Source: Spirochaetia bacterium (GTDB taxonomy: Bacteria; Spirochaetota; Spirochaetia; DSM-27196; Salinispiraceae). From it: a DNA stretch of 64,000 bases. A program made the position numbers and the translations under genes. Below, piece after piece: positions 44,450 to 60,583 of the stretch. Numbering within the stretch: position 1 is the stretch's first letter; each line of letters begins with the position of its first letter. The notes below the pieces were generated by a model. That model saw only the letters and a program-made list of their open reading frames with translations, made no database searches and had not been told where the DNA came from. Location of the stretch: positions 75,341-139,340 of the forward strand of contig JBBRCZ010000007.1 of the NCBI GenBank assembly GCA_038204425.1, read 5' to 3'.

Positions 44450-44459
44450 AGGACTGCAT

Positions 44460-46469
44460 ATGCGCCACGTTGAAAAAGTTTTCTTGAATCTCATGTATAG
44501 CGGCCTCTATAATACCGAGCTTGACGAAGAAGCCAAGTCTCGCGTTCTTTTTCTCAATTTATCTATTTTGATAGCTGGTTTTACGCTCACTTTTATGGCT
44601 ATTCAATCGCTTTTTTTGGCAAATTTCAACTTTGGTGCCGGTCTGCAGTCGATCGACATCATTATGGCTGCGGTTAGTTTTGGCGCGGCTTTCTTGATGG
44701 TTTTTTTGTTAATCTACCTTAGGCGCAACAAAAACAGAGTCTTTATTAGCTACTTTATGTCGATCGCGCTTTTGCTCTTCTGCTTGGTGATGATCTACCT
44801 TGGCAGCTACCGCAATACTGGCTACGAATGGATCGCCGCCTACCCAATAATGTCGGCTATGCTGCTAGGCTGGCGAGGACTTTTCTTGACCGTCATACTT
44901 CTTGTGGCGAGTTTGGTTATGACAATATTTGGCATTGGTGTTGCGACTGCGGACTTTACAACCATGCGGTTGGGCACCATTTTTGGCGTGGCGGGGGTAG
45001 TACTTGCTTTCTCGATTGGTTTTGAACTCTCAGTAAGTGCATCAATAAGAAAGATCAAGCACATTAACCAAAAGCTACAACAGTCAAACACACTCAACCG
45101 CTTGATCAAGGAAAATGGTGACTCAGTTTGTCTGATAGACGCAAGCTTGGTTATACAAGCGGAATACTCACAGAGTTTAGAAACCCTAATCGGCGATCAA
45201 GACTTGGGTGGCAAGAATCTGATCGGGCTTTTTGCCAAGCATACCGAAGACAACTTTGAACTAGAAGATTTTGAACAATACTTGTCCTTATTCTTTCAAG
45301 AACGAACCAAAGACAGACAGCTTGAGAACCTAAATGATTATCATCAAGTCAAACTGTACCCTATCCAGAACTTACCAAGTTCTAAGAAAGTAATTGACCT
45401 AAACTTTAAGCGCATTCACTATCAAGACACCATCTTGATCCTGTGCTTTTTTAAGGACATTAGTGAACAAATCCGTCTCGAGCAACGACTCACTCAAGAG
45501 CGCCTCGTAGACGATCAAAAACTCAAGGATTTACTCAAGATAGTGCACCTTGTCAAAAGAAACCCCGTCGAAATAGAGGAGTTTCTAACTGAGACAGAAA
45601 CCAGCATTGACGAAATCAACCTTAACCTCAAGTCAGGCAAGAAATCAAACAATCGCAAGATACTGTTAGACAGTTTTGTTATCATTCACGACATCAAGAG
45701 CACTGCAGCTTATGTGCTCAACATAGACAGCATTACTCAAAAATTTCACGACTTGGAAGAAGAAATTTCTACCGTTCTCAAACTCAACACCGATGCTGAT
45801 ATTGAGTCCACACAATTACGAAAGACAATTTACTCTCTTGGCGATTGTTACGAAGAAATCCAAAGTATACGAGGAACCTTGGCTGACATCTTTTCGGTAA
45901 GCACTGATGGATTTGGTGGTAATGTGTTTGCACTTAACCTTGAGTCCCTTGTTACTAGGCTCAACCAAAAACTGTCGATGGCCGTCAGATTGGACTTATC
46001 AAACTTAGATAGTGCAAATATTCCCAAGGCATATAAGAAAGCAGTCAAACAGTCCTTGGTTCAGCTGATTAGAAACTCATTTGCCCATGGCTTTGAAAGT
46101 GCAGAACAAAGAATGGCGCTCGCCAAAAGTGAGTATGGCCAGATAAGCATCTCATCGCAATCGTCCGATGGCAAATTTCGCATAGTCTACCGCGACGACG
46201 GGCAAGGGCTTGATGTGGATAAAATAAGACAAGTTGCTCTTTCCAAGCCAAATTTCGCAAAAATGGACGTCAAGGATCTAAGCGATAAGCAGTTACAAAC
46301 GCTCATTCTCTATAGCGGTTTTAGCACTTCCGAGTCAGCAGACTTTAACTCCGGCAGGGGTTTGGGTATGAGCATAGTCTCGCGCAACATTAAGGCAAAC
46401 AGCGGCGCCATCAATATCAATTCGGTTCGCGGGCAGTATTGTCAATTTGCGCTAAGCTTTCCAGCCTAA
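44460..46469 (+). CDS. Membrane-bound CheA-like histidine kinase (TM, PAS-like, Hpt, HATPase; no CheW domain)
   Basis: About 6 TMs; Hpt IHDIKSTA..FHDLEE; CheA-type QLIRNSFAHG, DDGQGLD, GFST, SGRGLGM; the protein ends right after the HATPase. Confidence 0.85.
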   Translation: MRHVEKVFLNLMYSGLYNTELDEEAKSRVLFLNLSILIAGFTLTFMAIQSLFLANFNFGAGLQSIDIIMAAVSFGAAFLMVFLLIYLRRNKNRVFISYFMSIALLLFCLVMIYLGSYRNTGYEWIAAYPIMSAMLLGWRGLFLTVILLVASLVMTIFGIGVATADFTTMRLGTIFGVAGVVLAFSIGFELSVSASIRKIKHINQKLQQSNTLNRLIKENGDSVCLIDASLVIQAEYSQSLETLIGDQDLGGKNLIGLFAKHTEDNFELEDFEQYLSLFFQERTKDRQLENLNDYHQVKLYPIQNLPSSKKVIDLNFKRIHYQDTILILCFFKDISEQIRLEQRLTQERLVDDQKLKDLLKIVHLVKRNPVEIEEFLTETETSIDEINLNLKSGKKSNNRKILLDSFVIIHDIKSTAAYVLNIDSITQKFHDLEEEISTVLKLNTDADIESTQLRKTIYSLGDCYEEIQSIRGTLADIFSVSTDGFGGNVFALNLESLVTRLNQKLSMAVRLDLSNLDSANIPKAYKKAVKQSLVQLIRNSFAHGFESAEQRMALAKSEYGQISISSQSSDGKFRIVYRDDGQGLDVDKIRQVALSKPNFAKMDVKDLSDKQLQTLILYSGFSTSESADFNSGRGLGMSIVSRNIKANSGAININSVRGQYCQFALSFPA

Positions 46470-46475
46470 AGATTT

Positions 46476-46505
46476 AAAAAAAAGCTGCCATTGTTACCTG
46501 GCAGC
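46476..46505 (-). terminator. Intrinsic terminator of the dehydrogenase operon
   Basis: GCTGCCA-8 nt-TGGCAGC followed by T8. Confidence 0.75.
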
Positions 46506-46514
46506 CGTTAGATT

Positions 46515-47777
46515 TCAAATACTCGGCGCATTGGCCAAGAGATACTCTTCTGCTTCTCGGTTCCAAAGCATATTATGTTTTTTGACAAATTGATCAAGTT
46601 TGGCATAAAACGGATTAGTCTTGCCCTGCTCAGCAAAGTCAGTCAGCGCAACCAGCTCCAAATTTTTGTGGGTGTAGATTAGTTTTTTGCCACCCGGAAT
46701 CTTGTCGAGTTCTATGGTGGTGTGGGCCACGGCATTGAGCCCGCCAACATGGGTAACCATCATAGCGGGATTGAGAATTCCTCGTCCCATCAGGTCAAGT
46801 GACTCAAGCATGTCGTCGTTGTTGCCGCCTGAGGTTCCAACGATGTGGTGCGATTCATAGTGGACGTTGTAGAAGTTAAGCGAAGCACTAAAGCTTGTGT
46901 CAGTTGGCCCTGCAAAAAAGTTGAGGCAACCATCGAGCCCCAAAATTTTGTCACCCAGCTCGAGCACTGGTTTTACCGGTGCAAAAACAAAGACATCGTC
47001 GTAGCCCTTGCCGCCGTTAGCAGCTTTAATGGTTTCTACCGGATCTTGCACATCTCGCGTGTTGAGGTAGACCAGTTTGACACCGTTCTTGGCGGCCTCT
47101 TCTACCGTCAAAATACTGGCAGCGCGGTCCAAACGGGCTTGGTCTATGTCGGTAACTACCAACAAGCTCGGCCTTCGGTCGCAATGCAAAGCGTAGTCTA
47201 TGGCACCAAGACCCATCGGGCCGACCCCTGCCAGCAGAGCCATCGCTCCGCCTTTGACTACGCCCATGTCATGCACGTAGGAGCCATTTTTGGTGTGATA
47301 CTGGGCGTGAAAAGCGCCAACGATGCAGCTGACTGGCTCAGACAGCGAGCCCATAAAAAAATTATCAGCTTTGTATTCAAGCAAACAGTCCATTTCCATA
47401 ACTTCATTAGGTATAAGAACATAGGTGGCATCACCACCAATAAACTCATACGAATATCCTGGTGCCCAGAGCGTGCCTTGGTAGTTAAGCGCAGGTTGGA
47501 TGGCAAACTTTTGGCCGGGCTTAAACTTGTGGGCCCATTTTTTTCCTACTTGCTCAATAATGCCGCAAAACTCATGCCCAATCATGATTGGGTGAGTGCT
47601 AAGGTCGTGACGCACACGTTTATGCTTGGCGCCCTGCATGGCCAGTTTGTGGCTCGACATACAGATCGAATCCGACACTACTCGAGCAATTATTTCGTCA
47701 TCACCCATGTTTGGAAGTTCAAAATCATCGAGGCGAAGGTCATTTTCGCCGTGTATCCGGACTGCTTTAGTCTTCAT
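46515..47777 (-). CDS. Zn-dependent MDR oxidoreductase, L-sorbose-1-phosphate reductase (SorE)-like
   Basis: SDSICMSSHK, GHEFCG, GYSY, LSEPVSC, GVGPMGLG, GTSGG and IPGGKKLIY. Confidence 0.85.
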   Translation of the reverse strand: MKTKAVRIHGENDLRLDDFELPNMGDDEIIARVVSDSICMSSHKLAMQGAKHKRVRHDLSTHPIMIGHEFCGIIEQVGKKWAHKFKPGQKFAIQPALNYQGTLWAPGYSYEFIGGDATYVLIPNEVMEMDCLLEYKADNFFMGSLSEPVSCIVGAFHAQYHTKNGSYVHDMGVVKGGAMALLAGVGPMGLGAIDYALHCDRRPSLLVVTDIDQARLDRAASILTVEEAAKNGVKLVYLNTRDVQDPVETIKAANGGKGYDDVFVFAPVKPVLELGDKILGLDGCLNFFAGPTDTSFSASLNFYNVHYESHHIVGTSGGNNDDMLESLDLMGRGILNPAMMVTHVGGLNAVAHTTIELDKIPGGKKLIYTHKNLELVALTDFAEQGKTNPFYAKLDQFVKKHNMLWNREAEEYLLANAPSI

Positions 47778-47779
47778 TG

Positions 47780-49291
47780 TTACTCCTTCTTTTCTTCTGC
47801 CAGTTTGAGCCAGGCAGCTTTGTAAGCGTGATAGTCTGGTAAGCTGGTCTTAGCGACCAGTTGAAAATCTATAGTTACTTGCGCCGAAAGCGTTTGCAAG
47901 CTTTCTCCGCTTAGTGCCATGCGGGCTGTCATGGCGGCACCAAAGGCACTTGCCTCGGCCAAGTCTGTCAAAAAGCAAGGGTTGTCTGGCAAGATGGAGG
48001 CCAAAACTCGATTGTAAGCGGCGTTGATTCTAAAACCACCCTCAGTAAAGACGCTGGCCCCGGGCATCAGCCCAAGCCGTTGTAGACTTACTTCTGTCTG
48101 AATAACCAAACTCAAGGTCAAAACCGCGCAGGCAGTTTCAAAGTCCTTAAAAAAATCAGGGAGGTGCTCTCCAGACTCAATTTGAGCCGGGTTATAGCTC
48201 GTGCCATCGGCCACAACCCGTGCCACAGATTGCGTAAACTGGCCTGAACCAGCAATCAACTCTGGCAGGACAAACTGAGTTCTGTCGCGCAATATGCGTT
48301 CAAAGACATCCTGCCTAAATTCCTTAAACTCAGCTTTTTTGCTATGTTGTTGAATTATCTTAAAGTAATAGCCAAACTCGTAGCCACCCAAAAATATCGC
48401 AATCTTGAGTGGCGTCATGAGTGCCGTCTGGTTAAAGAAGACCACTTTGCCGAGTTCTTCTTTGGCAAAAACAAAATCCTTGGCCGGATGCATGAGCACA
48501 CACCAGGTTCCGGTAGAATTGAGCACAAAGTCTTTGCCATCCTGCTTACTCAAGTAAGGCAAGAGGGCAGCACTTGAGTCGTGCATGCCCATGGTCACTA
48601 CCGTCTGAGGGTCGAGCCCCGTCGTGGCAGCTAGCTCAGCACTAATGCAAGCAAGCTTTTCCCAAGACTTTTGCAACCGACTTGCAAGCAGATGCCTGAT
48701 GCCGAGTTTGTCTACCAAGCTGGAATAATCGTTTTTGGCAAAGTCCCAAAGATAACTATGGTTGCCAACATAAGTCGCCTCAAGCCCCACCTGTCCGCTT
48801 AGCCTAAAGCCCCAATACTGGGGGTAGTTGAGCAGATATTTGGTCTTAGCAAACTGACTGGGAAAACGCTCTTGAGCAAACATTATTCCCTTGGCGGGAT
48901 TGATGAGTGACTTAAAAGAAGCACTGCCGGTCTGCGTTTGCAATTGTTCTGGACTTCCCATGGCTTGGTAAAATCTGTCGTGGAAGTCTCCACCTGGTTC
49001 ATGGGTGTAAAAGACACAAGGTACGCAAGGTTTTCCGTCTTGGCCTATACAAACAAAGCTTGCGCCATGGCTACTCACGGCCAAGGCTTTGATGGCGTGT
49101 TTTTGGCCCAAAGCGGCCAAAGATTCAATAAACCAAGCTTCCATGCCAGCCAAATCATGCAGCTCAAGACCCTCAAACAGCAAGGGTTCAAAACTGCGAT
49201 ATAGACTGTCAATTTGAACCAAGTCCTGATCGTAAACAGCGATTTTTTTGTTGGTCATGCCAATATCTATCACGGCGATTGCATAGCTCAT
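47780..49291 (-). CDS. FGGY-family carbohydrate kinase
   Basis: IDIGMTNKK, SSHGAS, GMHDSSA, NSTGTW, EGGF and EASAFGAA. Confidence 0.85.
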   Translation of the reverse strand: MSYAIAVIDIGMTNKKIAVYDQDLVQIDSLYRSFEPLLFEGLELHDLAGMEAWFIESLAALGQKHAIKALAVSSHGASFVCIGQDGKPCVPCVFYTHEPGGDFHDRFYQAMGSPEQLQTQTGSASFKSLINPAKGIMFAQERFPSQFAKTKYLLNYPQYWGFRLSGQVGLEATYVGNHSYLWDFAKNDYSSLVDKLGIRHLLASRLQKSWEKLACISAELAATTGLDPQTVVTMGMHDSSAALLPYLSKQDGKDFVLNSTGTWCVLMHPAKDFVFAKEELGKVVFFNQTALMTPLKIAIFLGGYEFGYYFKIIQQHSKKAEFKEFRQDVFERILRDRTQFVLPELIAGSGQFTQSVARVVADGTSYNPAQIESGEHLPDFFKDFETACAVLTLSLVIQTEVSLQRLGLMPGASVFTEGGFRINAAYNRVLASILPDNPCFLTDLAEASAFGAAMTARMALSGESLQTLSAQVTIDFQLVAKTSLPDYHAYKAAWLKLAEEKKE

Positions 49292-49316
49292 TGTGACAAG
49301 CTCCTTGATGTCGACA

Positions 49317-50552
49317 TTAGTGCAACATCACTTGCCCGCCCGTTACGGGCAGGGCTTGACCGGTTTCGTACTGTTGTTCGACCAGATAAAACAGAGCTCT
49401 CATGACATCTTGACCTGTGCAGCCGCGCTTCATTGGCACCTTATTTTCATAAAAAGTCTTTACGTCAGCAATAGTTAGCGCTCCTGGCACTTTGCCAGTC
49501 CGCAGATACTGCACAAAGAGTCCTTTTTCGGGGTCAGACCACAGTGGCCCATCAAAAAAGTTGCCGGGGCATATCGCGTTTACTTTGATCCCATACTGGA
49601 CTAGTTCTAGCGCAAAGCTTGCAACCAATCCAATGCCGCCAAACTTGCCACCAGCGTAAGCCCCGTTTTTGTTAGAACCTTCTAGACCGGACTTGGAGTT
49701 AATTTGCACGATGTCAGTCGTCCATTGTGGTGCCATACTGTTTTGGGCCTTTAAGAGTCGCCCAGCGTGCTTGCTGACTATAAAAAACCCGGTATAGTTT
49801 ACATCCGTTACAAACTTAAAGGCCGCCAAATCTTGCTCGAGCACGCTGCCCGCCTTAAGCACGCCAGCGTTACTGACGCACAGATCTAGCCCGCCAACAC
49901 TGCGCGCGATTTGGCCAAACATGGCCTCCACCGAAGCTTCGTCGGCGACATTTGAAGCAATGGCGATAGCTCTTGTACTGCCACTCGCTTTGTTGAGTTG
50001 GTTTGCAAGCTGATTTGCTTTGTCGAGGTTGAGGTCAGCGATGTAAACCAAACATGTTTGGGCTACCAAACCGCGTACGATTTCTTCGCCAAAACCTTGC
50101 GCTCCACCAGTTACTAGGGCGATGCGGTTTTTGAGCAAGCGGGCGGGCTGCGTGCTGTCGTCTAGGTGAGCGTCAAGCCTCCAAGCTTGTGCATCGCCTG
50201 ACTTTTGGCGCGCTATGGCTTGATCGTATTCTTCTGCAATCCAAAAAGCCAGGCTTATGGCCTTGCCCTTGATAAAGACACAGGATGGAATACTAATCTG
50301 TTGATTGTCTGGCTTCTGCGTCAGGCGCCAGTTTACTAAACCCTCTTTGAGCTTTTCCGATAAGATTGACAAAGTTTCTGTATCAAGATTTTCGCTGCTT
50401 AGTTGGTAGTCAACTTCAATCTGCAAGGCATGTTTGGGTGCCGTCGCGAGAGTTTCCGCAACAACAAGCAAAGGAACCGAGGCAACATCCAAAATGAGCC
50501 CGCGCACACGCGGACAGAGAATTTCTAAAAGGGCATTTTCCTCGCGACTCAT
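49317..50552 (-). CDS. SDR, sorbitol-6-phosphate dehydrogenase (SrlD)-like, with ~135-aa N-terminal extension
   Basis: VTGGAQGFG, QINSKSGLEGSNKNGAYAGGKFGGIGL, VPMKRGC and TGQALPVTGGQVM. Confidence 0.85.
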   Translation of the reverse strand: MSREENALLEILCPRVRGLILDVASVPLLVVAETLATAPKHALQIEVDYQLSSENLDTETLSILSEKLKEGLVNWRLTQKPDNQQISIPSCVFIKGKAISLAFWIAEEYDQAIARQKSGDAQAWRLDAHLDDSTQPARLLKNRIALVTGGAQGFGEEIVRGLVAQTCLVYIADLNLDKANQLANQLNKASGSTRAIAIASNVADEASVEAMFGQIARSVGGLDLCVSNAGVLKAGSVLEQDLAAFKFVTDVNYTGFFIVSKHAGRLLKAQNSMAPQWTTDIVQINSKSGLEGSNKNGAYAGGKFGGIGLVASFALELVQYGIKVNAICPGNFFDGPLWSDPEKGLFVQYLRTGKVPGALTIADVKTFYENKVPMKRGCTGQDVMRALFYLVEQQYETGQALPVTGGQVMLH

Positions 50553-51916
50553 TCTTGTTTCTCCTTGAGTATACGGTCAGCAATGGTTCTGGCAGATTTT
50601 TGTACCGCCTGGACATCGAGTTCTTGACCAAACTCGGCATAGCGAGACAAACGCTGACTAAGCGATAGACGCGCCAGCGGGTTATCGTGGGCAAACAATG
50701 CAAGCTGAGCGTCGGCACTGGCCAGCTTTTCGTGGGCAATCAAGGCCCAAGTTGTAGCGATCAAGTGCTTAAACTCGTCTTGCAAAACTTCTGGACAGTT
50801 GAAGGACTGGCGCGAACTATTGATGTCCACCCCAGAAATCTCCATCAGTCCGTGCTTTTCGCAAAGACGCCTAATGCGCAGCAGTTGTTCCACCGTATTG
50901 CGTGGCGGCATGTAGGTCACGGCCTGGTAACCAACTTTTACTAAGGTTTCAAATAGCTGGTCAAGAAAATCGTCTTCAAACTTTTCGGCTTTTTTGTCGC
51001 CGGTTGGCGACTCGCCCACATCACCAAGATAAGCGTAAGCAGGTATAGCTGACAGCGAGCGAGCAAAAGCAACCACTTGAGCTACCGGCAAACATTCGTC
51101 CTGAGCGGGTTGGATAAAGACTCGTTCCAAATAACCCGCTTTTAAGAGCCCAATCAGATCGTATTGATAGTGAGCATTGGTGGTGTCGGCGAGCAGACTC
51201 TGCAGTTTTGCGCTCACCTCAACGCCAAGCTTGGCTAGTGCCTCAAAGATAGCCTTGCCTGGCTTAAAGTTGCGCATCAAGAGTAAGGCTAAGGCCGAAC
51301 ATAAGTGGCGCTCGGTTATGCTGCCGCCTTGCTTGGACATGGACAGTGGCACCACATCTCGCTCAAAGTCCAGGCTTTGTAGTCCAAGGCCCGATGCAGA
51401 GAGCGTTTGGTTGATACGCTCGAGAATAGCTTGACTGCGGCGATTGCGCACCAGGTTCAGCGGTGCCAAAAACGCTTTGACCAAGGCAACTGACTGTGCA
51501 GGCACGCCTTGGATGGTCATGTAGGCGATGCCAGTTGAGTCTGGGTTGTTTATTTTTTTGCTGGCTATAAAAGAATCAGCTTCTTCAAAGTCAACCCTAA
51601 GCTCAAAGCCACAGGTGCTTGCGATGCCAATAATCTGACAAGCTTCCAACATTTCACGGGCAGCACCAATCGAATCGTGGTCAATGCTTCCGGCTGCCAT
51701 GAGGCCAGCCTCTCGGGCTTTAAGGGCCGCCATGGCCGGGGTGTAAGGGCTAAAACTGTAGACGCTATGGATATGGTTGTTGACCTCTTGCTTGAGCGCA
51801 GGCCACAAGGGCCCGCCTTGCACAAGCAGGCTCAGGGCCTGCAAGCGCTCAGCAGAGCTTACGCTTGGATCATTAACTTTGTCGCGCAGCAAGTCCATAG
51901 ACTTAGAACTGTCCAT
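50549..51916 (-). CDS. PHP-domain metallophosphoesterase-like protein
   Basis: NNHIHSVYS, DHDS and GFE motifs; C-terminal SGVDINS in place of the usual GSDxH. Confidence 0.8.
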   Translation of the reverse strand: MDSSKSMDLLRDKVNDPSVSSAERLQALSLLVQGGPLWPALKQEVNNHIHSVYSFSPYTPAMAALKAREAGLMAAGSIDHDSIGAAREMLEACQIIGIASTCGFELRVDFEEADSFIASKKINNPDSTGIAYMTIQGVPAQSVALVKAFLAPLNLVRNRRSQAILERINQTLSASGLGLQSLDFERDVVPLSMSKQGGSITERHLCSALALLLMRNFKPGKAIFEALAKLGVEVSAKLQSLLADTTNAHYQYDLIGLLKAGYLERVFIQPAQDECLPVAQVVAFARSLSAIPAYAYLGDVGESPTGDKKAEKFEDDFLDQLFETLVKVGYQAVTYMPPRNTVEQLLRIRRLCEKHGLMEISGVDINSSRQSFNCPEVLQDEFKHLIATTWALIAHEKLASADAQLALFAHDNPLARLSLSQRLSRYAEFGQELDVQAVQKSARTIADRILKEKQE

Positions 51917-51960
51917 AGTTGTTTAGACTCCCAAACGGTTGCGGCGCAGCAAGTCCATAG
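51884..51960. repeat. 17-bp direct repeat, 60 bp apart, across the E1/PHP junction
   Basis: GCGCAGCAAGTCCATAG at 51884-51900 and 51944-51960. Confidence 0.85.
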
Positions 51961-54379
51961 CTGTTTGTACCGTCTTTGGAGAGTGGCCTTTAAGTGGCAG
52001 GAGACGCTCGTGGATGGTGTCCACAATCCAGTCTATTTGAGGAAAGTAGTATTCTTCCATTTCTGCTGCCGGGGTTATCCAGTTTCGGCTGCCAACCACT
52101 GCTACCGGTGCATCCAAGTGATTGAATGCCAAGGTTTGCACATTAGAAGCTACCGTGTGTAGAAATGAGCCCCGTTCTGCAGCGTCACTTGCCAAGACGA
52201 GCTTGCCGGTCTTTTTGACGGAGTCGACGATTTTTTCGTAGTTGAGAGGATTGATATAGCGAAGGTCGATAACCTCAACCGAGAGGCCGTACTGGGTCTC
52301 AAGAATCTTTGCGGCCTCAAGAGCACGATACAAAGTGGCTCCAAGAGTTGCAATCGTTAGATCCGTACCTTGTTTTCTAACAGCTGGTTCACCTTCGGGT
52401 GTTTCGTAGTAGCCTTCTGGCACGCCGCCTTTTTCAAACTGTTCGCCAATGTCGTACAAAAGTTGACTTTCAAAGAAGATGACCGGATCCGTGCCTGCTA
52501 AAGCTTGATTGAGCATGCCTTTGGCATCGTAAGGAGTGGCCGGAAACATAGCTTTAAGACCTGGAATGTGAGCAGCCAAGGCGGCCCAATCTTGCGAGTG
52601 TTGAGCACCGTACTTGTTGCCAACCGAAACGCGCACCACCAATGGCATTTTGAGAAGTCCCGCAGACATAGCCTGCCACTTAGATACTTGGTTAAAGATT
52701 TCGTCACCGGCGCGTCCCATAAAGTCACAGTACATAAGTTCTACTACCGCGCGACCGCCAGAAAGAGCGTAGCCAACGCCGGCGCCTACGATGGCACCTT
52801 CGCTAATGGGACTATTAAACAGACGATTGTAAGGCAAAAGCTCAGTTAAACCACGGTAGACGGCAAAGGCCCCACCCCAGTCGCGATTCTCTTCGCCCCA
52901 GGCGGCCATGCTTGGGTCTGTTACAAAACGGTGCGCCATGGCTTCAAAAAGTCCGTCACGATACTGGTAGAGCTTGTTTTTTCCAATTGGTTTGCCTTCG
53001 GCATCAAACGCATAGCGACTCTTGCCAGCTAAAGCCACAACACGGGCATTTTCGGCCAAAGGTTGCAGCAGTTCTGGCTTAGCATCACCGTGCTTTTCTA
53101 CCTTGCCACGGGAGAACATTACCGACTCAATAAAGGCTCCATTGACGCGCAAGCTAATGCTATCGTCGGTAGCGAGTTTGACAATGTTGGTCAGTTTTTG
53201 GACCACGCCTGCGCGTTTGGTATCAAGCTCTGAGGTGCTGATAACGCCGTTTTGGACCAAGTAGGCGCCATATGACTCGATCGGGTCTGCGTCTTGCCAC
53301 AATTTGATCTCTTCACTGGTGCGGTACGACGAGGCATCAGATGGCGAGTGACCAGAGATACGGTAGGTCAAAGTGTCCATCAATACAGGGCCCTTGCCTG
53401 CCAGCAATAGTTCTTTTTTGCGCACAATAGCATCGGCAACTGCCAAAGGATTGTAGCCGTCAACGCGCTCTGAGTGCATATTGTCGGGATTAACGCCGGC
53501 ACCCACTCGAGCCAAAATTTTGTAGCCCATGGTCTCGCCGTGGGTTTGACCGCCCATGCCATAAAAGTTGTTAAAGAAGTTGAACAACATGGGTGGTGCA
53601 CCACCTAAGTCCTTGGGCCACAGGTCGCGGTACTGGTCCATCGAGGCAAGCATCATAGCTTCCCAGACTGGACCACAACCCATCGAAGCATCGCCGATGT
53701 TAGCAATTACTATACCTGGCTTGCGATTGATACGCTTGTAGAGGGCAGAACCAGTAGCGATATCAGCCGAACCGCCAACTATAGCGTTGTTAGGCATAGA
53801 ACCAAAGGGAGTAAAGAAGGCATGCATAGAACCGCCCAAACCGCGGTTTACACCAGCTCGGCGGGCAAAGATTTCGGCCAAGGTTCCGTACAAAACAAAG
53901 TTTTCGGCCAGGTCCTTTACACCTTTGTAGGCAGCCTTTTCGGCTATTGCCAAGGTTTCGCCATCCAAAAAGTCCTTCATTATGACGTTTAGTTGCTTGT
54001 CATCGAGCTTGGCAATAGCCGAGTAACACTTTGCAAGAATTTCACCATGGCTACGGTGGCTACCAAAAATGTAGTCGTCAGTGTTGAGGTTGAGACATTG
54101 TCCTACGGCCGAGGCTTCCTGACCTATCGACAAGTGGGCTGGTCCCTTGTGATTGTACTCGATGCCATTCCAAGCACCTTGGGTCTTGATGGTGTTGAGC
54201 ATGGTTTCAAATTCTCTAATAGTGACCATGTCATACCAAATTTTAATCAGCCCATCTTTGCCATAGCGTTCAAGTTCTTTTTTAAAATCGCTTTGGTACT
54301 GGTTTACGGGAATATCCTTGATCTTAATAACCTGACTCTTACGAACTTCTTTTGGATCAATCACTAGTGCCTTGGGCAT
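51923..54379 (-). CDS. Fused E1 alpha/beta TPP-dependent dehydrogenase (2-oxoacid/acetoin dehydrogenase family)
   Basis: HLSIGQE, SHRSHG, GGSMH, GDA..NN (TPP binding), YRISGHS; beta part [18 protein letters not shown]. Confidence 0.92.
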
Positions 54380-54406
54380 TTTTTTTCTCCTGTATAATTG
54401 TGCGGC

Positions 54407-55792
54407 TTAAATCAGCCAGCTTGCTTCTCTAATTACTTCACCAACGGTTGGGTGTGGAAAAACCAACTGCTTTACGTCGCTGATGCACATTTCTTGTTCT
54501 ATTAAAGCTGCGCCGCCCCAGATAAACTCTGAGGAATAGGCGCCAACGGCGTGCACGCCCAAGACACGACCACTTACTGCGTCACTAATGATCTTAACTG
54601 CTCCAGGGCCGGAGAAGGTGTTTTCGGCCACAAAACGACCCGACACCTTGAGTGGCAGTGATCCTTTTTTGATGGCTATGCCGCGAGATGCTGCTTCTTG
54701 CTCGGTCATACCAACACCAGCGGCCTCGGGGATGCTGTAGACTGCCCATGGAATTGCGTCAAAACGCATGAGGTCCTTGCTCAAGGCCTTACCGTCAAGT
54801 TTGGCCACCATGTCCGAAACTGCCACCTCAGCCATTCGATAGGCCGAGTGAGCTAGCTGGCTCTTGCCGGTAATGTCACCGGCCGCCCAAATGCCTGGCA
54901 AATTGGTGCGCATGCGCTCGTCTACATTGACACCTTTGGGGCTGGTGTCTAGGCCAATTTCTTGGGCACCCCAACCTTGCAAATTGGGTCGGCGACCAAC
55001 CGCCATCAGCACCAAGTCTGCTTCTACTTTTTCGGCAAGGCCAGCCTTAGTTGTGTAGTGTACGGTTGCGCCTTCTAACTTTTCTACCTTGCAACCAAGC
55101 TTAAACTCAACGCCGCTCAGGGCTTTGCGCAAGAGTGGTGCTTGATCTTTGTCCATAAAGGGCACGATTTCGTCCATCATTTCTACGACTGCCACTTTGC
55201 TACCGAGGGCGGCAAAAAGGCTGGCAAACTCGACACCAATCACCCCGCCGCCGATGACGGTTAGGCGTTTGGGCACGGCACTTATTGCCAGCAGTCCCGT
55301 GGAATCAACAACTGATTTATTGTCTTTGCTACCCAAAATCGGTGGCATGGCAGGCGATGAGCCTGTGCAGATCAAAATTGCTTTGGTACCGTATTCCCCT
55401 GAAGCTGCACTGTCAGTTGCACTTACTTGTACTTTGCCAGGCGCAAGAATACTGGCAGTACCGGCAATTACCTCAACGCCAAAGCGCTTCATTTGGCCGG
55501 CAATACCGGCCCGCAACTTAGTAACTACTTCGTCTTTCCATGCCATCATAACTTTAAAGTCATAGCTCAGGCCTTCTATTTTTATGCCAAAGTGGGCGCC
55601 TTCTTTGGCATGCAGATAGTGCTTGGCCGAGTTGAGAAGCGTCTTAGTGGGAATACAACCCCAGTTTAGACAGGTTCCACCCAGATATTCTTTTTCTACC
55701 AGCAGCACTTTTTTGCCCTCATGTCCGAGGCGCTCTGCTGCCAAGTAACCGGCGGGCCCACCACCGATAATGATTACGTCGTATTCTTTCAT
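54407..55792 (-). CDS. lpdA: Dihydrolipoamide dehydrogenase (E3)
   Basis: GGGPAG, GGTCLNWGCIPTK, GGGVIG and HPTVGE. Confidence 0.95.
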   Translation of the reverse strand: MKEYDVIIIGGGPAGYLAAERLGHEGKKVLLVEKEYLGGTCLNWGCIPTKTLLNSAKHYLHAKEGAHFGIKIEGLSYDFKVMMAWKDEVVTKLRAGIAGQMKRFGVEVIAGTASILAPGKVQVSATDSAASGEYGTKAILICTGSSPAMPPILGSKDNKSVVDSTGLLAISAVPKRLTVIGGGVIGVEFASLFAALGSKVAVVEMMDEIVPFMDKDQAPLLRKALSGVEFKLGCKVEKLEGATVHYTTKAGLAEKVEADLVLMAVGRRPNLQGWGAQEIGLDTSPKGVNVDERMRTNLPGIWAAGDITGKSQLAHSAYRMAEVAVSDMVAKLDGKALSKDLMRFDAIPWAVYSIPEAAGVGMTEQEAASRGIAIKKGSLPLKVSGRFVAENTFSGPGAVKIISDAVSGRVLGVHAVGAYSSEFIWGGAALIEQEMCISDVKQLVFPHPTVGEVIREASWLI

Positions 55793-55794
55793 CG

Positions 55795-57225
55795 CTATTT
55801 TACCATCCATACATCAAGATCAGCCACCACGTCGCACAGTGCTTTGAGAAATCGAGCGGCTGGAGCACCATCAACTACCTGATGGTCTATGGTCATACTA
55901 AAGCCAATATGGGGAACAAAACTGACCCCACCATTTTTATTTTGGGCATCAAAAACTGGTTTGGGCTGTATGCCACAAACACCCAAAATTGCAACTTCTG
56001 GTGCATTGAGAACAGGTGTAAAGCTCTCAATACCCAAACTTCCGAGGTTGGTAATCGTAAAGCTGGAACCAGACAAGGCCTCTGCCTTGATGCTTCCAGC
56101 TTGGCACGCAGCTGCCAATCGTTTTGCTTCAGCTGAAAGCGCGCCCAAACTCAGCGTTTCTGCGTTGCGAATCACGGGTACCATAAGTCCCCGTGGCGTA
56201 TCCACGGCCAAACCCAAGTGCACTGATTCGTAGGTCCGGACGGTGTCGCCAAGCTTGTGGGCGTTCATAAAAGGAAATTCTTTAAGCAAGCGCGAGACAG
56301 CAAAGAGCACTAGGTCGTTAATCGTCACCTTAGTCAGGCCAAGGTTTTCGGCCGAGGCCTTAAAGCGCGCTCGCAGCTCCTGTAGCCTTAAGGCCGAAGC
56401 GCTGCTGTTGAGGGTAAACTGTGCACTATTGGCCAAGGACTGTGCCATGCGTTCGGCAATAACCTTGCGGATACCCTTAAGCTGGACATCGGTATAAACA
56501 CCCAAGGCCGCGCTTGCAGAAGCTGCTACACCTTGTGCGCGTGGGCTTGCTGTGCCTGCGCTAAGTTGTGGCGCATTGGCAAGGTCGGAAGCAGTTATAC
56601 GCCCACCAATTCCGCTGCCATACTCGGGCAGCACCACCTGAGCGCCTGAGGCCAGTGCCGCCTTAGCAGCCGCAGTTAGCGGTGGTCTGCCTTCCAAAGC
56701 GGCCTTAACATCACGTTCTATAACTCGCCCCTCTGGTCCAGTTCCGCCAAGCAAGCTGGTATCAAGTGCGTTTTGAGCAGCAAGGTTGCGCGCTCGAGGC
56801 GAAATGCCACTTTCTTTGTCTATAGCACTACCTGTGGTATTGTCTATAGCACTACCTGTGGTATTTTCTGTAGCATTAACGCTGGGCTTGATAGCCAAAC
56901 CAGTAGTTTGAGCTATGGTTGCTGGGGCAGTCGCTGTTTCAGAAGCCGTGCCTGGGGCAGTCCCAATGGCTGCCGACCAATCTTCGCCAGCGTTGCCAAT
57001 AACGGCAATCGGCTGCAGAACCGGCACATCGGCACCGGCTGCATGCAGAATTTTTAGCATGATACCGGCTGCCGGCGCAGTCACTTCAAAACTTGCTTTA
57101 TCAGTTTCAACTTCACAAACAACCGCATCGGCGGCCACAGTATCGCCTTCTTTGACCTTCCAGCCAATGATTACGCAGGACTCAACCGTGTTACCCTGTC
57201 GGGGCATGTTTAAAACATGTGCCAC
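55795..57225 (-). CDS. Dihydrolipoamide acyltransferase (E2)
   Basis: Lipoyl site ETDKA; two E3-binding-like segments (GTGPEGRV, GSGIGGRI); TITNLG; catalytic DHQVVDG. Confidence 0.93.
   Translation of the reverse strand: MAHVLNMPRQGNTVESCVIIGWKVKEGDTVAADAVVCEVETDKASFEVTAPAAGIMLKILHAAGADVPVLQPIAVIGNAGEDWSAAIGTAPGTASETATAPATIAQTTGLAIKPSVNATENTTGSAIDNTTGSAIDKESGISPRARNLAAQNALDTSLLGGTGPEGRVIERDVKAALEGRPPLTAAAKAALASGAQVVLPEYGSGIGGRITASDLANAPQLSAGTASPRAQGVAASASAALGVYTDVQLKGIRKVIAERMAQSLANSAQFTLNSSASALRLQELRARFKASAENLGLTKVTINDLVLFAVSRLLKEFPFMNAHKLGDTVRTYESVHLGLAVDTPRGLMVPVIRNAETLSLGALSAEAKRLAAACQAGSIKAEALSGSSFTITNLGSLGIESFTPVLNAPEVAILGVCGIQPKPVFDAQNKNGGVSFVPHIGFSMTIDHQVVDGAPAARFLKALCDVVADLDVWMVK
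56816..56865. repeat. 24-bp tandem duplication in the E2 linker
   Basis: TTGTCTATAGCACTACCTGTGGTA twice, encoding NTTGSAID twice. Confidence 0.9.
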
Positions 57226-57253
57226 AAATCACCTCCCTACAAAAAATAGAATC

Positions 57254-58009
57254 CTAGACAAGTCGGAATCGCACCCCTGCCGACTCCAGTTCGGCCGCAC
57301 TCTGGGCCGAAAGTTTGTTATCAGTAATAATTAGACTCAAATCTTCTAAGGGCAAAATAGACGCAAAGCCAATCTTGCCGTACTTGCTCGAGTCGGCCAC
57401 CAAGATGGTTTGTTGAGCGTGGGCGTGCATAGCGCGAATAATTTCAGAGCCCTCCATCAAGTGAGTAGTGATGCCGCGAGCCAAGGAGAAGCCATCGGTT
57501 CCTACAAACGCAAACTTAACTTGCAAGCGCGCAATGCTATCGATTGCCATACTACCTGCAAAGGACTCGGTGCTACGGCTAAACTCGCCGCCAATCATAC
57601 TCAACCTAAGCGCGGGGTTGAGTCGGGCATGAGAAAAGGCCAAGTTGGAATTGCTCACCACGTGGACGTCGCGCTTGCCCGACAGAAACTTAGCAATCAA
57701 TGCAGTTGTGGTTCCTGCTTCTATCATAATCACGTCGCCGTCGCTAACCATTTCTGCCGCTGCCCTGGCAATCTGGGTTTTTTGTTCTGAGAAAACGTTC
57801 TGTCGTTCTAAAATATTGCGGTTTATGGCACCCTCAGCCCCACCGCGCGTTCGGTTAAGCAGCCCTCTTTCGGCCAAGGACTTGAGATCCGATCTGATGG
57901 TAACTTCTGACAGACCAAGGTCTTGTGCAAGCGTGACGACCGACAGCGAGCCATGCTCAGCTAACTTGCTGAGGATAGTTCTGTCCCTTTCGTTTAAACT
58001 ATCAAACAT
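57254..58009 (-). CDS. DeoR/GlpR-family transcriptional regulator
   Basis: HTH LSEVTIRSDL..RTRGGA; EAGTT; VADSSK. Confidence 0.93.
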   Translation of the reverse strand: MFDSLNERDRTILSKLAEHGSLSVVTLAQDLGLSEVTIRSDLKSLAERGLLNRTRGGAEGAINRNILERQNVFSEQKTQIARAAAEMVSDGDVIMIEAGTTTALIAKFLSGKRDVHVVSNSNLAFSHARLNPALRLSMIGGEFSRSTESFAGSMAIDSIARLQVKFAFVGTDGFSLARGITTHLMEGSEIIRAMHAHAQQTILVADSSKYGKIGFASILPLEDLSLIITDNKLSAQSAAELESAGVRFRLV

Positions 58010-58077
58010 TTTCGTTATGCTTTCGGAACGCTTTCGATACCACAAGTCACTATAACAATCAGCTCAGACTTTTACAA
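58010..58077 (-). promoter_or_regulatory. Promoter plus candidate DeoR operator
   Basis: TTGTAA-17 bp-(TGn)TATAGT (58077-58049); three CGAAA boxes at 11-bp spacing (58010, 58021, 58032). Confidence 0.6.
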
Positions 58078-58103: not shown

Positions 58104-58871
58104 CTAAGCTGTCAATGCGTCACGATACTCACGTGGCGTTAGTCCGTATCGATCTTTAAAAACACGATTAAAATGCGAGATATTTTTGTAGCCCAGTTTG
58201 TCAGCTACTTCGTAAATTTTGAGTTGCGAATCTTTAAGCATCACTTTAGCTCGTTCCAAACGATGCAGGGTTAGATAGTCAGAAAAGAACTTACCCGTCT
58301 CCTGATGAAAAACAAACCCAAGATGATTTGGCGTTACTCCAAATCGAGCAGCCAGCTCTTTGAGTGAGACACCCTGTTCCAACTCTTCTTCTACCGCCCG
58401 CTTAACGTCCCGTATAATCAACCGCTCATGGCCTCGAGCTTCGGCTGGCTTTGCCTCACCATCTTCGGTACTAAGAACACCATTTTTTGCAGAAAGTTTA
58501 TCAAGTTTGAGCACTACACTTTTTAGAATTTCACTAAGTTCGGCATCGTCAACAGGCTTGAGAATGTAAGCTGCGGCGTTTTCTCTGATAGCGCGCTTGG
58601 CGTAAGAAAAGTCAGCGTGTCCAGAAATAAAGACAGCCAACAAATCTGGCTTATATTCTTTGCCTCTGGAAAAAAGATCCAAACCAGACATACCAGGCAT
58701 TCGGATGTCGCTTACCAACAGATCCACCGCCTCACGTTGGATAATCTCCAATGCTTTTGCCGCCGAATTGCTAGCCCATTGCGCCTGCATACCAAAACTT
58801 TCCCATGGCACCAGAGTCTGCAATCCTTCCAAATCGGGCGCTTCGTCATCCACCAATAAAACTTGATACAC
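58104..58871 (-). CDS. YesN-like response regulator (REC + AraC HTH)
   Basis: LVDDE, SDIRMPGMSG, YILKP; KIYEVADKLGY...FNRVFK..YGLTPREYR; GTG start follows GAGGAG; own promoter TTGACA-17-TACCAT (58920-58892). Confidence 0.92.
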   Translation of the reverse strand: MYQVLLVDDEAPDLEGLQTLVPWESFGMQAQWASNSAAKALEIIQREAVDLLVSDIRMPGMSGLDLFSRGKEYKPDLLAVFISGHADFSYAKRAIRENAAAYILKPVDDAELSEILKSVVLKLDKLSAKNGVLSTEDGEAKPAEARGHERLIIRDVKRAVEEELEQGVSLKELAARFGVTPNHLGFVFHQETGKFFSDYLTLHRLERAKVMLKDSQLKIYEVADKLGYKNISHFNRVFKDRYGLTPREYRDALTA

Positions 58872-58935
58872 TATGGACTCCTCACTAGACGATGGTATGA
58901 GCAAGCCTGCATGCTGTCAAGTCAGCCAGTCCAAC

Positions 58936-58967
58936 AAAAAAAGGGCCGTTTGCAAGCAAACGGCCCT
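58936..58967 (-). terminator. Intrinsic terminator
   Basis: AGGGCCGTTTGC-TT-GCAAACGGCCC followed by T7. Confidence 0.88.
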
Positions 58968-58985
58968 CTCAAATCTCTCAACAAT

Positions 58986-59028
58986 ACTATTACTTTGCAG
59001 TAACGTAAAAACTATTACTTTGCAGTAA
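58986..59028. repeat. 18-bp direct repeat duplicating a gene end
   Basis: ACTATTACTTTGCAGTAA at 58986 and 59011. Confidence 0.85.
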
Positions 59029-59746
59029 TGCTATGAATCAAAATGTGGGATTTGGGCGAAAGATCATTGCGATCTTCTCTATTGGTTGAAATCATGCCAA
59101 CCAACAAGCGATTGTTAGGGTTGGGACGTACAGTTTGGCCATACTTGTTGTCCAAAACACTAACCATCTCTACACCATTGATCTTTACTATCATGCGAGG
59201 AAATCGGTCTTCTTGAATAATGCCGTAGCTTACGGTGACTTCTTGTCCTATAGGAAAGGTCTTAAAGCCCAAAGCTGGAAAGTCTGCGTAGCGAAAAGTC
59301 AAGTTTGGATTGTTACCCTTGCCATGTTTTTGCACTTCTATCTTGTCACCCTTGAGCAAAAGTGCATAGCACTGTTGTTGCCAAAAGATGCTGCCAACGC
59401 TGCTTCCACGTTGCACTAAGGCTATAAAGGATGCCTCGCCAGAGGTAAAGTCACCATTAAAAGTAAGTTTATAATCCACAAGTTTGTTTTCAAACTGCTT
59501 TGACAAAGCTGCCTTTAGACCATAAATGCTTTCGGTAGAAACGTACGATCCCATCAACTTAAGGCTATTTGAGGACTGTGCAATGTAGTCAGGGACTGCT
59601 TTGCGTTTACCAGCTACTATTGAAGTGCCTTCCCAGTTACTTGCCTTAACTACTTCTGGTACTTGGGCAAAACTTGCCATTACCGATACCAAAGTCAGCA
59701 CCAGGACAGAAGCGATTTTTACCATAAAACGTGTCTTTGTGTTCAT
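59015..59746 (-). CDS. Exported protein of unknown function, paralog 2
   Basis: Signal peptide ending ASFA; aligns end to end with 59771..60547; SD AAGGAG. Confidence 0.85.
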   Translation of the reverse strand: MNTKTRFMVKIASVLVLTLVSVMASFAQVPEVVKASNWEGTSIVAGKRKAVPDYIAQSSNSLKLMGSYVSTESIYGLKAALSKQFENKLVDYKLTFNGDFTSGEASFIALVQRGSSVGSIFWQQQCYALLLKGDKIEVQKHGKGNNPNLTFRYADFPALGFKTFPIGQEVTVSYGIIQEDRFPRMIVKINGVEMVSVLDNKYGQTVRPNPNNRLLVGMISTNREDRNDLSPKSHILIHSITAK

Positions 59747-59770
59747 CTTGTTCTCCTTACAGATGGTTAA

Positions 59771-60547
59771 TTACTCAGCACTCAAGCTGGTAATGGTTAT
59801 CGACGACTTAGGGCTTAGGTCATTTGCATCTTTATTATTGGTGGCCTGCAAACAGATTAAGACCCTGTTACTATTGCTAGGCTTGATCGTAGCGCCCCAT
59901 TTGTTGTCCAATACATTCGCAATTTCTATGCCGTTAATTTTGACGACCAGACGTGGCACTGTGCCTTCATCAATAACAGCAAAGCTGAGTTCTACTTCTT
60001 GACCAATAGGAAGACTAGTAAAACCGAGTTCGGGGAAGTAATCGTAGGCAAATCTAAAGCTTTCCGGTGGCGAAAAATTCCGCCCACGTTCAATTTTGGC
60101 CAGTTGGACAGCCTTTTCGCGGACGATTACCGCATAGCCAGTCTGATTACGTAGCGATGTCGCTATAGCTCCAGCGCGTAACGAGACAGCAATGTAGGAA
60201 CCTTCCTTGTAGTTCTCTCCCTCGCCTCTTGGAAAGCTTCCGTCAAAAACAAACTTCATAACCAAGGCTTTGTTGGTAAACTGAGCTGATAGTTTTTGAT
60301 CTAAGGCGTACTGAAGATCATTCTGAAACCCGGGTTTACCGCTATCTGAAGGGTGCGCACCCATGAGCTTTAAGCCTGTTTCGGTTTCAAAAATAAAGTC
60401 TTTAACAGGTTTTCTGATGGATCTGATATCCCAGGATGCCGCCCAGTTTGACGCCTTGAGCAGTTCTGGTACCTCCTGTGCAGACAATCCTGCAGCAGCA
60501 ACTACTACAGTCATCAGCAAAAACGACACTATTTTTTTTGTGTTCAT
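59771..60547 (-). CDS. Exported protein of unknown function, paralog 1
   Basis: Signal peptide ending LSA; shares VPE..KASNW, LKLMG, PIGQEV, VKING.E...VLDNK.G and NDLSPKS with its neighbour. Confidence 0.85.
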   Translation of the reverse strand: MNTKKIVSFLLMTVVVAAAGLSAQEVPELLKASNWAASWDIRSIRKPVKDFIFETETGLKLMGAHPSDSGKPGFQNDLQYALDQKLSAQFTNKALVMKFVFDGSFPRGEGENYKEGSYIAVSLRAGAIATSLRNQTGYAVIVREKAVQLAKIERGRNFSPPESFRFAYDYFPELGFTSLPIGQEVELSFAVIDEGTVPRLVVKINGIEIANVLDNKWGATIKPSNSNRVLICLQATNNKDANDLSPKSSITITSLSAE

Positions 60548-60583
60548 CTTGTTCTCCTTGTGGGCCTCATTGGCCCAATTAAT

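Follow-up and report, generated by a model that had tools for sequence, protein, structure and literature searches.

The stretch of DNA analyzed here, called the window, comprises 64,000 nucleotides of contig JBBRCZ010000007.1 from a Spirochaetia bacterium (assembly GCA_038204425.1; genome G000 below, 95.6% complete), and coordinates are positions within it unless another contig is named. Its minus strand carries eight open reading frames (ORFs), running from 58045 to 46515, that encode a DeoR-family regulator, the E2 and E3 components of a lipoamide-dependent complex, a fused alpha/beta E1 that uses thiamine diphosphate (ThDP), a PHP-fold protein, a short-chain dehydrogenase/reductase (SDR), an FGGY kinase, and a SorE-like zinc dehydrogenase. 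We propose that this operon is very probably a catabolic module for 6-deoxyhexoses and that its E1 likely acts on a 1-deoxy-ketohexose-6-phosphate, cleaving this methyl-ketose phosphate to acetyl-CoA.

The intergenic distances, in gene order, are 28, 2, 27, 6, −4, 25, and 2 bp; the 2-bp spacing between E2 and E3 holds with the E3 ATG at 55792, and the first ATG would instead create a 16-bp overlap. Matches to Pfam and NCBIfam back the DeoR regulator, E2, E3, the fused E1, the SDR (nearest to SrlD), the FGGY kinase, and the zinc dehydrogenase, along with a weak PHP match, and E3 is the only operon protein above a curated NCBIfam cutoff. These ORFs and family matches bear out the original prediction of eight genes in this order with spacings below 30 bp and no phosphotransferase system (PTS) or aldolase gene inside the operon.

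The E1-E2-E3 complex and the sugar enzymes

The E1 is not an ordinary pyruvate dehydrogenase (PDH) or branched-chain oxoacid dehydrogenase. It falls below all NCBIfam cutoffs, including those for PDH E1 (TIGR03182, 169 versus 394; NF006667, 235 versus 321), transketolase (NF004559, 69 versus 488), and 1-deoxy-D-xylulose-5-phosphate synthase (TIGR00204, 51 versus 466), and the genome has separate pdhABCD genes on contig C1, sucAB, and one further fused E1 elsewhere. Its identity is 33% to the genome's own PDH, 54 to 82% to 83 rows of its clade, and 33 to 38% to 16 remoter fused E1s; in a quick-method tree, the clade (38 rows) forms one side of a long branch with a support of 100. The ThDP motif (G229-D230...N271), the catalytic residues E527 and H594, and both His residues are intact. 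The E2 motifs ETDK and DHQVVDG and the E3 motif GGTCLNWGC are also present, placing the complex within the broad group of 2-oxoacid and acetoin dehydrogenases, and the lipoate ligase family is represented in the genome. The E2 scores 66 with the AcoC model NF011457, below its AcoC-type threshold of 307.

Several other E1 copies deserve mention in their own right. The sister group of fused E1s (L223 to L238; 33 to 38% identity) often has two or three members per genome (G007, G022, G035, G036, G048, G060, G080, G120, G127, G134, and G148), and these adjoin genes for mannitol-1-phosphate dehydrogenase and DeoR, for transaldolase, for fructose-bisphosphate (FBP) aldolase, for a long iron-containing alcohol dehydrogenase, for an E2 fragment, or for a glycyl radical enzyme (GRE); they are possibly further sugar-phosphate-cleaving enzymes. 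Long-branch copies at L199 (G479) and L200 (G429), possibly decaying operons, show fusion or linkage to remnants of E2/E3; the DNA fetched for them holds neither a PHP nor a SorE gene, and the L200 protein has lost both catalytic His motifs. Two in-clade E1 copies each occur in G313 (L053, L079, and L155) and G330 (L081 and L156), in differing contexts, joined to or apart from the PHP-SDR-SorE module. A lipoate-protein ligase gene is the last gene of the operon at L048, L145, and L149, as in Caldicellulosiruptor.

The SorE-like protein is 48 to 50% identical, at 100% coverage, to three annotated SorE proteins. The SDR scores 224 with the SrlD model NF009050, below its cutoff of 307, and its only PDB match under 1e−25 is the SrlD structure 5o3z. 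It lacks a RhaEW-type class II aldolase domain and keeps a 140-amino-acid remnant of the lost aldolase fusion. The operon kinase lies far below the FucK cutoff (TIGR02628, 36.5 versus 471); the same type of kinase follows rhaA and a RhaE-like gene at L255, and across loci the kinase gene lies either within the operon or beside the isomerase gene.

The predicted model of the PHP protein (pLDDT [predicted local distance difference test], 94; from a 63-row alignment) resembles 3e0f, Cv1693, and RNase AM; superposed on 3e0f (Z, 25.9; root mean square deviation, 2.9; 277 aligned residues), it has the PHP barrel with a helical insertion, and a profile search of the PDB with its alignment reached 3e0f as the sole structure. 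Compared with what we take to be the canonical nine ligands of the three-metal PHP site, five are kept (H48, H50, H80, E105, and D364) and four are replaced (F55, Y132, Y296, and N366 for D, H, H, and H), a mapping made by motif alignment to the canonical PHP proteins of the same genome, not from coordinates. R160, R203, H204, and R339 are invariant. This reduced site would suit a one-metal enzyme that binds a sugar phosphate rather than a three-metal hydrolase, and the protein may be a ketose-1-phosphate 3-epimerase or, alternatively, an aldolase or a phosphatase.

Table 1. Operon genes and sites, with positions in the window
Feature	Coordinates	Strand	Remarks
DeoR-family repressor	57254..58009	−	Probable start ATG 58009; ORF finder start 58045
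E2 dihydrolipoamide acyltransferase, one lipoyl domain	55795..57225	−	ETDK and DHxxxDG motifs intact
E3 dihydrolipoamide dehydrogenase	54407..55810	−	Probable start 55792; TIGR01350, 454 bits versus cutoff of 409
Fused E1 alpha/beta ThDP enzyme	51923..54379	−	Catalytic motifs intact; clade-specific R499 and K589
PHP-fold protein, YciV/RNase AM shape, reduced metal site	50549..51916	−	Candidate ketose-1-phosphate 3-epimerase or aldolase
SrlD-like SDR (polyol-6-phosphate 2-dehydrogenase), 140-amino-acid RhaE-like fusion remnant	49317..50552	−	
Divergent FGGY kinase	47780..49291	−	Candidate fuculo/rhamnulokinase
SorE-like zinc dehydrogenase (ketose-1-phosphate reductase)	46515..47777	−	Identity to annotated SorE
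Intrinsic terminator-like hairpin	46483..46506	−	8-bp stem and T run; faces convergent gene ending at 46469
Sigma70-type promoter-like site, TTGTAA-17-TATAGT, extended TG	58049..58077	−	Consensus match, alone no better than chance
Three CGAAA direct repeats, 11-bp period	58010..58036	−	Likely DeoR operator; between −10 element and start codon

Conservation and association with 6-deoxyhexose genes

A genome scan for the E1 returned at least 568 relatives, of which the best 80 loci were taken; these span Spirochaetota, Actinomycetota, Chloroflexota, Myxococcota, Gemmatimonadota, and Lentisphaerota. Among the 32 loci with full 10-kb flanks, the SDR and PHP genes each occur in 22 and a SorE-type gene in 20, and 9 have none of the three, although the genomes of 8 of these 9 encode a PHP protein elsewhere. 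The case named in the original prediction as speaking against it, an ordinary E1 whose link to the sugar genes is not conserved, is thus not what we found, as the link is kept across phyla. The identity of the neighbors is another matter: the recurrent ones are RhaA, RhaI, RhaB, RhaM, RhaS, FucI, and FucU, and neither the operon nor the recurrent neighbors of the best 80 loci include a sorbose PTS. The genomic evidence therefore favors 6-deoxyhexoses (fucose and rhamnose) over the sorbose/glucitol class of substrates that had been suggested. Gene orders illustrate the association: the operon lies back to back with fucU-ABC-fucI in G185 (L145), L155 reads rhaB-rhaA-PHP-SDR-SorE, and L183 reads rhaS-rhaI-rhaM-rhaB-PHP-SDR-MDR-...-E2-E3-E1, where MDR is a medium-chain dehydrogenase/reductase.

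The association extends to whole genomes. Sixty-two E1-positive genomes were compared: G000, 12 members of a phylum sample, and 49 to which 50 of the 80 loci, selected for their long flanks, gave access. FucI is present in 40, RhaA in 37, RhaI in 14, and at least one of these isomerases in 59. Within the phylum sample of 301 genomes, in which kin are not independent and a P value is therefore given no weight, FucI occurs in 8 of the 13 E1-positive genomes versus 44 of the 288 E1-negative ones. The window's genome itself has fucU-fucI (G000 C18:42151-44483, with fucU 236 bp from the contig end) and no match to RhaA or RhaI.

No FucA above the cutoff was found in G000; the best match to TIGR01086 (48 versus 400) is AraD, which lies within araBAD and is the genome's only class II aldolase match. 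The same genome has no match to fructose-6-phosphate aldolase (FSA) or transaldolase, and its two candidates for FucO, homologues of iron-containing alcohol dehydrogenases, lie elsewhere, neither beside fucI. In G185 (99% complete) and G340, nothing matched a class II aldolase. Around fucI, at a distance of up to about 8 kb, a class II aldolase gene occurs at none of 22 loci of E1-positive genomes versus 7 of 20 loci of E1-negative genomes.

The length of the SDR follows the sugar. Twelve genomes encode it as a fusion with a RhaE-like aldolase whose motifs are intact; a rhamnose isomerase is present in 11 of them and FucI in none. The short form occurs in 33 genomes, 31 of which have FucI (this count leaves out G235 and G331, in which the length is unsettled, and 15 genomes without an SDR in the fetched DNA). 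Spirochaetes with both the short SDR and rhaA have a stand-alone RhaE-like gene beside rhaA in 10 of 12 fetched regions, and spirochaete rhaA loci mostly lack a kinase gene. It follows from this split that the aldolase-fold enzyme tracks rhamnose and that fucose does not require it, whereas both variants retain the PHP protein. A separate arrangement was seen at four E1-negative loci (L206, L213, L215, and L220), where an SDR gene and further genes come after fucI but none matches a kinase or an aldolase; perhaps these encode a nonphosphorylating route.

Proposed route, objections, and alternatives

We infer every reaction of the route proposed here, starting from what is observed: the operon, its conservation, its link to deoxyhexose genes, the failure to find FucA, and the states of the motifs. 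SorE and SrlD together turn a ketose-1-phosphate end for end, as established for sorbose. By their known stereochemistry, only the L-sorbose skeleton leads to D-fructose and then, by cleavage between C2 and C3, to D-erythrose; the fuculose and rhamnulose skeletons lead to D-threose. To reach 6-deoxy-L-sorbose-1-phosphate, fuculose-1-phosphate requires one inversion (at C3) and rhamnulose-1-phosphate requires two, which fits one extra enzyme for fucose (the PHP protein) and two for rhamnose (the RhaE-like protein and the PHP protein).

On fucose, FucU and FucI (contig C18) would supply L-fuculose, which the FGGY kinase would phosphorylate to L-fuculose-1-phosphate. The PHP protein may then invert C3 to give 6-deoxy-L-sorbose-1-phosphate, which the SorE-like enzyme would reduce at C2 with NADH to 1-deoxy-D-glucitol-6-phosphate. 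Oxidation of the other end by the SrlD-like SDR would yield 1-deoxy-D-fructose-6-phosphate, a methyl ketol that phosphofructokinase could not use. The E1 would cut this compound between C2 and C3, much as acetoin dehydrogenase does with acetoin, and E2 and E3 would complete the reaction to acetyl-CoA, NADH, and D-erythrose-4-phosphate, the last of which would enter the transketolase reaction. For rhamnose users, the RhaE-like class II aldolase would act first, on rhamnulose-1-phosphate, by C4 epimerization or by cleavage and recondensation. Transketolase, acetate kinase, phosphotransacetylase, and lipoate ligases are apparently present, at the motif or family level. We regard the case as about balanced for the exact order, with the PHP protein acting before SorE, and likewise see an even chance that the operon is a DeoR-repressed fucose/rhamnose module yielding acetyl-CoA and erythrose-4-phosphate instead of propanediol. 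The oxidative cleavage of a ketose phosphate that was originally predicted is also the best reading here; the predicted product, glycolyl-CoA, gives way to acetyl-CoA from a methyl-ketose phosphate. D-Arabinose and L-galactose were rejected as the main substrates, since they would reach xylulose-5-phosphate (Xu5P) or fructose-6-phosphate (F6P) without any E1.

A second type of module may converge on the same intermediate. The GREs YbiW and PflD convert 1,5-anhydrohexitol-6-phosphate to 1-deoxy-D-fructose-6-phosphate, which aldolases then split (PMC13450708). In G333, the operon is interrupted by a cassette of activase, DeoR regulator, ROK kinase, and YbiW-type GRE (889 bits, with the next family at 604) that has no FSA; among the seven other copies of the YbiW-type cassette, four have FSA and none has an adjacent E1. 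At the near-identical loci L278 and L279, the order is GRE-activase-E2-E3-E1, without SorE, SrlD, or PHP, and the E1 fills the slot held by FSA in a gut cluster (GRE-activase-FSA). FSA of the type seen in the YbiW cassettes also adjoins five of the operons. Across 79 metagenomic loci of PflD-like GREs, 5 have the E1 at a distance of no more than 10 kb (the DNA of the query itself is one of them) and 13 have FSA; clustered at 90% identity, the E1 is found in 4 and FSA in 2 of 36 clusters. Nine of the PflD-like loci hold a second, YbiW-type GRE, and at L079 the truncated GRE is ambiguous, but the full-length protein ranks PflD first. The GRE-adjacent E1s fall at four places in the quick-method tree. 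With the GRE functions taken by homology, 1-deoxy-D-fructose-6-phosphate would be the simplest common product of both upstream modules.

Other GRE contexts were also recorded. Anhydroglycolysis is not indicated in G000, which has no FSA match and a single GRE, 27 to 31% identical to the YbiW and PflD types; a feed from this GRE was ruled out because it is of a distant type in a NanE locus. The protein (G000 C6:29942-32218; L243) has 759 amino acids and an unusual Cys loop, and its neighbors encode NanE, a ROK kinase, DeoR, a PIG-L deacetylase, lacto-N-biose phosphorylase, and GH35. Recurrent companions of the PflD-like GREs (L191 and L259 to L337) are an unannotated ROK-like protein, at 25 of 79 loci, a shikimate-dehydrogenase-like gene (13 loci), a GMC oxidoreductase (4 loci), and a Gig2-like gene. 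At L053 (L053:48-12448), 7 to 10 kb separate an in-clade E2-E1 pair under a SorC-type regulator from genes for an FGGY kinase, a zinc dehydrogenase, and a GatZ-family protein; this set could be a fucitol route to 1-deoxy-D-fructose-6-phosphate.

Several observations weigh against the route and its link to the GRE modules. We know of no epimerase in the PHP family, and in an alignment judged by eye the E1 has no clear counterpart of the phosphate-binding Arg of transketolase. Class II aldolase genes adjoin the module at L070, L151, and L153, and 3 of the 62 E1-positive genomes, all metagenome-assembled, lack an isomerase match. Six of eight kin genomes with a YbiW-type cassette have the E1, but only one has it adjacent, and two cassettes likewise lack FSA although no E1 was found in their genomes. 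The E1 was not seen in 74 of the 79 PflD-like GRE loci, many of which are on short contigs, and the assignment to PflD is by best match only (645 and 592 bits versus 551 for glycerol dehydratase). Coregulation with fucU was tried and rejected: the operator-like box pair described below is absent from the 236 bp available upstream of fucU, and the single box pair among 22 fucI loci is at the background level. Finally, Caldicellulosiruptor saccharolyticus, whose similar gene set is strongly induced on rhamnose, converts rhamnose to propanediol, acetate, H2, and CO2 at 1:1:1:1 (PMC4187192) and turns fucose into propanediol and D-arabinose into ethylene glycol (PMC3637100). The 1:1 propanediol argues against a large flux through the E1 in that organism, because acetate and H2 would then be higher and propanediol would not be formed. 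This species also has an aldolase, and the E1 route there may be a minor or low-H2 branch.

Similar end chemistry could be reached in another order. In this alternative, which we consider unlikely, SorE would reduce fuculose-1-phosphate to 1-deoxy-D-galactitol-6-phosphate and the SDR would oxidize this to 1-deoxy-D-tagatose-6-phosphate, after which either the PHP protein would epimerize C4 before the E1 acts or the E1 would cut the tagatose form and the PHP protein would convert the resulting D-threose-4-phosphate. The direct route does yield tagatose and threose skeletons, the SorE-like (about 50% identity) and SrlD-like (below the cutoff) enzymes are distant enough for altered specificity, and L053 places a GatZ-family tagatose-6-phosphate epimerase, along with its kinase and zinc dehydrogenase, near an in-clade E1. 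However, two enzymes would have to depart from their known stereochemistry, compared with none in the model preferred above, and L053 is a single locus. The disposal of lactaldehyde, with RhaD/RhaE or the PHP protein splitting the ketose-1-phosphate and the complex oxidizing L-lactaldehyde, for example, to lactoyl-CoA, is rather improbable. Such a step has been proposed for Athe_0702-4 (PMC8579813), RhaEW is a proven aldolase/lactaldehyde dehydrogenase (PMC3870299), and intact RhaE-like aldolases do occur at rhamnose loci. Nevertheless, it would leave SorE and SrlD without a role, the absence of class II aldolase matches in G185 and G340, and of any but AraD in G000, speaks against it, and it does not explain an E1 beside PflD/YbiW-type enzymes, which give no lactaldehyde.

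A general ketose/polyol route, in which sorbose, glucitol, or L-galactose would be brought to F6P and the complex would cleave F6P, Xu5P, or a sugar 2-oxoacid to glycolyl-CoA, is closest to the original prediction and draws on the homology of SorE and SrlD, on the activity of FucI with L-galactose and D-arabinose (from a reference title in PMC3637100), and on the mtlD, transaldolase, and FBP aldolase genes beside the sister E1 clade. We hold it to be highly improbable: neither F6P nor Xu5P requires a special cleavage, the recurrent neighbors are deoxyhexose genes, and no gene for handling glycolyl-CoA recurs among them. Two further readings seem to us nearly negligible. In one, FSA would split 1-deoxy-D-fructose-6-phosphate and the complex would turn the released hydroxyacetone, which resembles acetoin, into acetyl-CoA and formaldehyde. 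FSA of the YbiW-cassette type does adjoin five operons (these neighbors, taken as transaldolase, prove to be of the FSA type), but four of the five genomes searched (G000, G185, G152, and G030) have no FSA or transaldolase match, and the E1 occupies the place of FSA at L278 and L279. In the other, the complex would be an ordinary pyruvate, branched-chain, or acetoin dehydrogenase merely coregulated with sugar genes, as could be read from the automatic names of its relatives (2-oxoisovalerate or alpha-ketoacid dehydrogenase) and from the 9 of 32 full-flank loci without any sugar gene within 10 kb. Against this stand the scores far under the PDH cutoffs, the 33% identity to the genome's own PDH, the separate long-branch clade, and the PHP genes elsewhere in the genomes of eight of those nine loci.

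Regulation, surroundings, and comparison with known systems

The DeoR gene probably starts at ATG 58009, giving a protein of 251 amino acids that matches its orthologues, rather than at TTG 58045. Between the −10 element and this likely start lie three CGAAA boxes (58036, 58025, and 58014) with an 11-bp period. Of 44 orthologous upstream regions, 17 have at least two of these boxes, versus 0.4% of shuffles, and of the eight box pairs in the genome, the two at this operon are the only ones at a gene start. Tandem repeats of 10 to 11 bp are typical binding sites of the DeoR-type regulator RhaR (PMC3870299), and the triple repeat is likely the DeoR operator. The original prediction of one promoter and one terminator stands only in part. 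Both sites are present, but as consensus matches: the region has 10 promoter-like sites versus 13.9 in shuffles and 22 terminator-like sites versus 17.5. Since no terminator was found in the stretch separating the operon from the AraC gene upstream of it, which has a promoter-like site at 58920, read-through is possible, and the operon may have more than the one promoter; the promoter call is itself strengthened by the three adjoining CGAAA boxes.

Upstream on the same strand (58104-62206) lie genes for an AraC-type response regulator, two secreted-looking proteins (59015-59746 and 59771-60547) that have no Pfam match and look paralogous by eye, and a family 1 sugar-binding protein; none of these is among the recurrent neighbors at other loci. 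A convergent three-gene set (43539-46469) encodes a response regulator, a protein that looks like CheX, and a membrane protein whose end is a CheA-like HATPase. Farther away, 32882-41623 encodes a 2,913-amino-acid protein with GH94 and glucoamylase-like domains, a layout that we take to be that of a cyclic beta-1,2-glucan synthase.

More broadly, and somewhat tentatively, this clade of lipoamide-dependent complexes may consist of sugar-phosphate dehydrogenases that cut 1-deoxy-D-fructose-6-phosphate to acetyl-CoA and erythrose-4-phosphate, a hub fed by unrelated modules. If so, it would be an oxidative counterpart of phosphoketolase, fed by an end-for-end route from fucose and rhamnose with the first PHP-fold epimerase, by radical ring opening of 1,5-anhydrohexitols, and perhaps by a GatZ-type fucitol route. 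Fucose and rhamnose are abundant in mucin and pectin and in the glycans of algae and bacteria, and in the textbook view anaerobes lose half of each sugar as propanediol; a further 6-deoxyhexose route would use all six carbons. The inferred yield would be about 3.7 ATP per sugar versus 2, with more reducing equivalents to remove, which would suit hydrogen-exporting or syntrophic spirochaetes. Such a route would also assign a function to the Caldicellulosiruptor cluster, extend the substrates of PDH-type complexes to a sugar phosphate, and bring an epimerase into the PHP family. The proposed substrate can be prepared from hydroxyacetone and glyceraldehyde-3-phosphate (GAP) with FSA.

The AcoAB proteins cleave acetoin oxidatively to acetyl-CoA and an aldehyde. 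The window operon shares with acetoin dehydrogenase (AcoA/B/C/L) a ThDP-dependent E1, a lipoyl E2, an E3, and the methyl-ketol cleavage proposed here, but its E1 is fused, belongs to a separate clade, and would act on a sugar phosphate. Homologues of both enzymes of the L-sorbose pathway (SorE plus SorD/SrlD) are present, with the same end-for-end logic; unlike that pathway, the operon lacks a PTS and adds a kinase, the PHP protein, E1 to E3, and a deoxy-sugar context. The isomerase, mutarotase, and FGGY kinase steps are those of FucIKA-O, RhaABD, and RhaEW, and rhamnose variants have a RhaE-like domain, but no FucA was found in G000, and the window SDR is of the SrlD type, not the RhaW type, and no longer carries the aldolase domain. 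The PHP protein has the fold, the helical insertion, and the HxH, Glu, and Arg motifs of the phosphoesterases YciV, RNase AM, and Cv1693, with four of nine ligands replaced.

Anhydroglycolysis (YbiW/PflD plus FsaA/B) shares 1-deoxy-D-fructose-6-phosphate as the proposed intermediate and has modules neighboring ours in several other genomes; there, however, an aldolase cuts C3-C4 to give hydroxyacetone and GAP (PMC13450708), whereas an oxidative C2-C3 cut is proposed here. The closest published gene set is that of Caldicellulosiruptor (Csac_0865-0876 and Athe_0698-0704), with SrlD-like and SorE-like proteins, a lipoate ligase, an acetoin-dehydrogenase-like E2, E3, and E1, a DeoR regulator, and induction by rhamnose (PMC4187192 and PMC8579813). 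It differs in having an aldolase in the cluster, where the window operon has none, and the match is by gene set, not by sequence. There, Athe_0698 (SrlD) and Athe_0699 (SorE) are filed under "Sorbose?", a lipoate ligase is listed as well, and Athe_0702-4 is described as a new enzyme resembling acetoin dehydrogenase, with lactaldehyde as its guessed substrate (PMC8579813). The earlier description of the pathway as undescribed thus holds for the chemistry, as we found no paper on the proposed route among open-license PMC papers and bioRxiv (subscription papers could hold more), but not for the gene set, which was already in print as rhamnose induced with no function demonstrated (PMC4187192 and PMC8579813). 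The module is real and widely conserved, and it resembles an acetoin dehydrogenase joined to the sorbose redox pair while being a member of neither.

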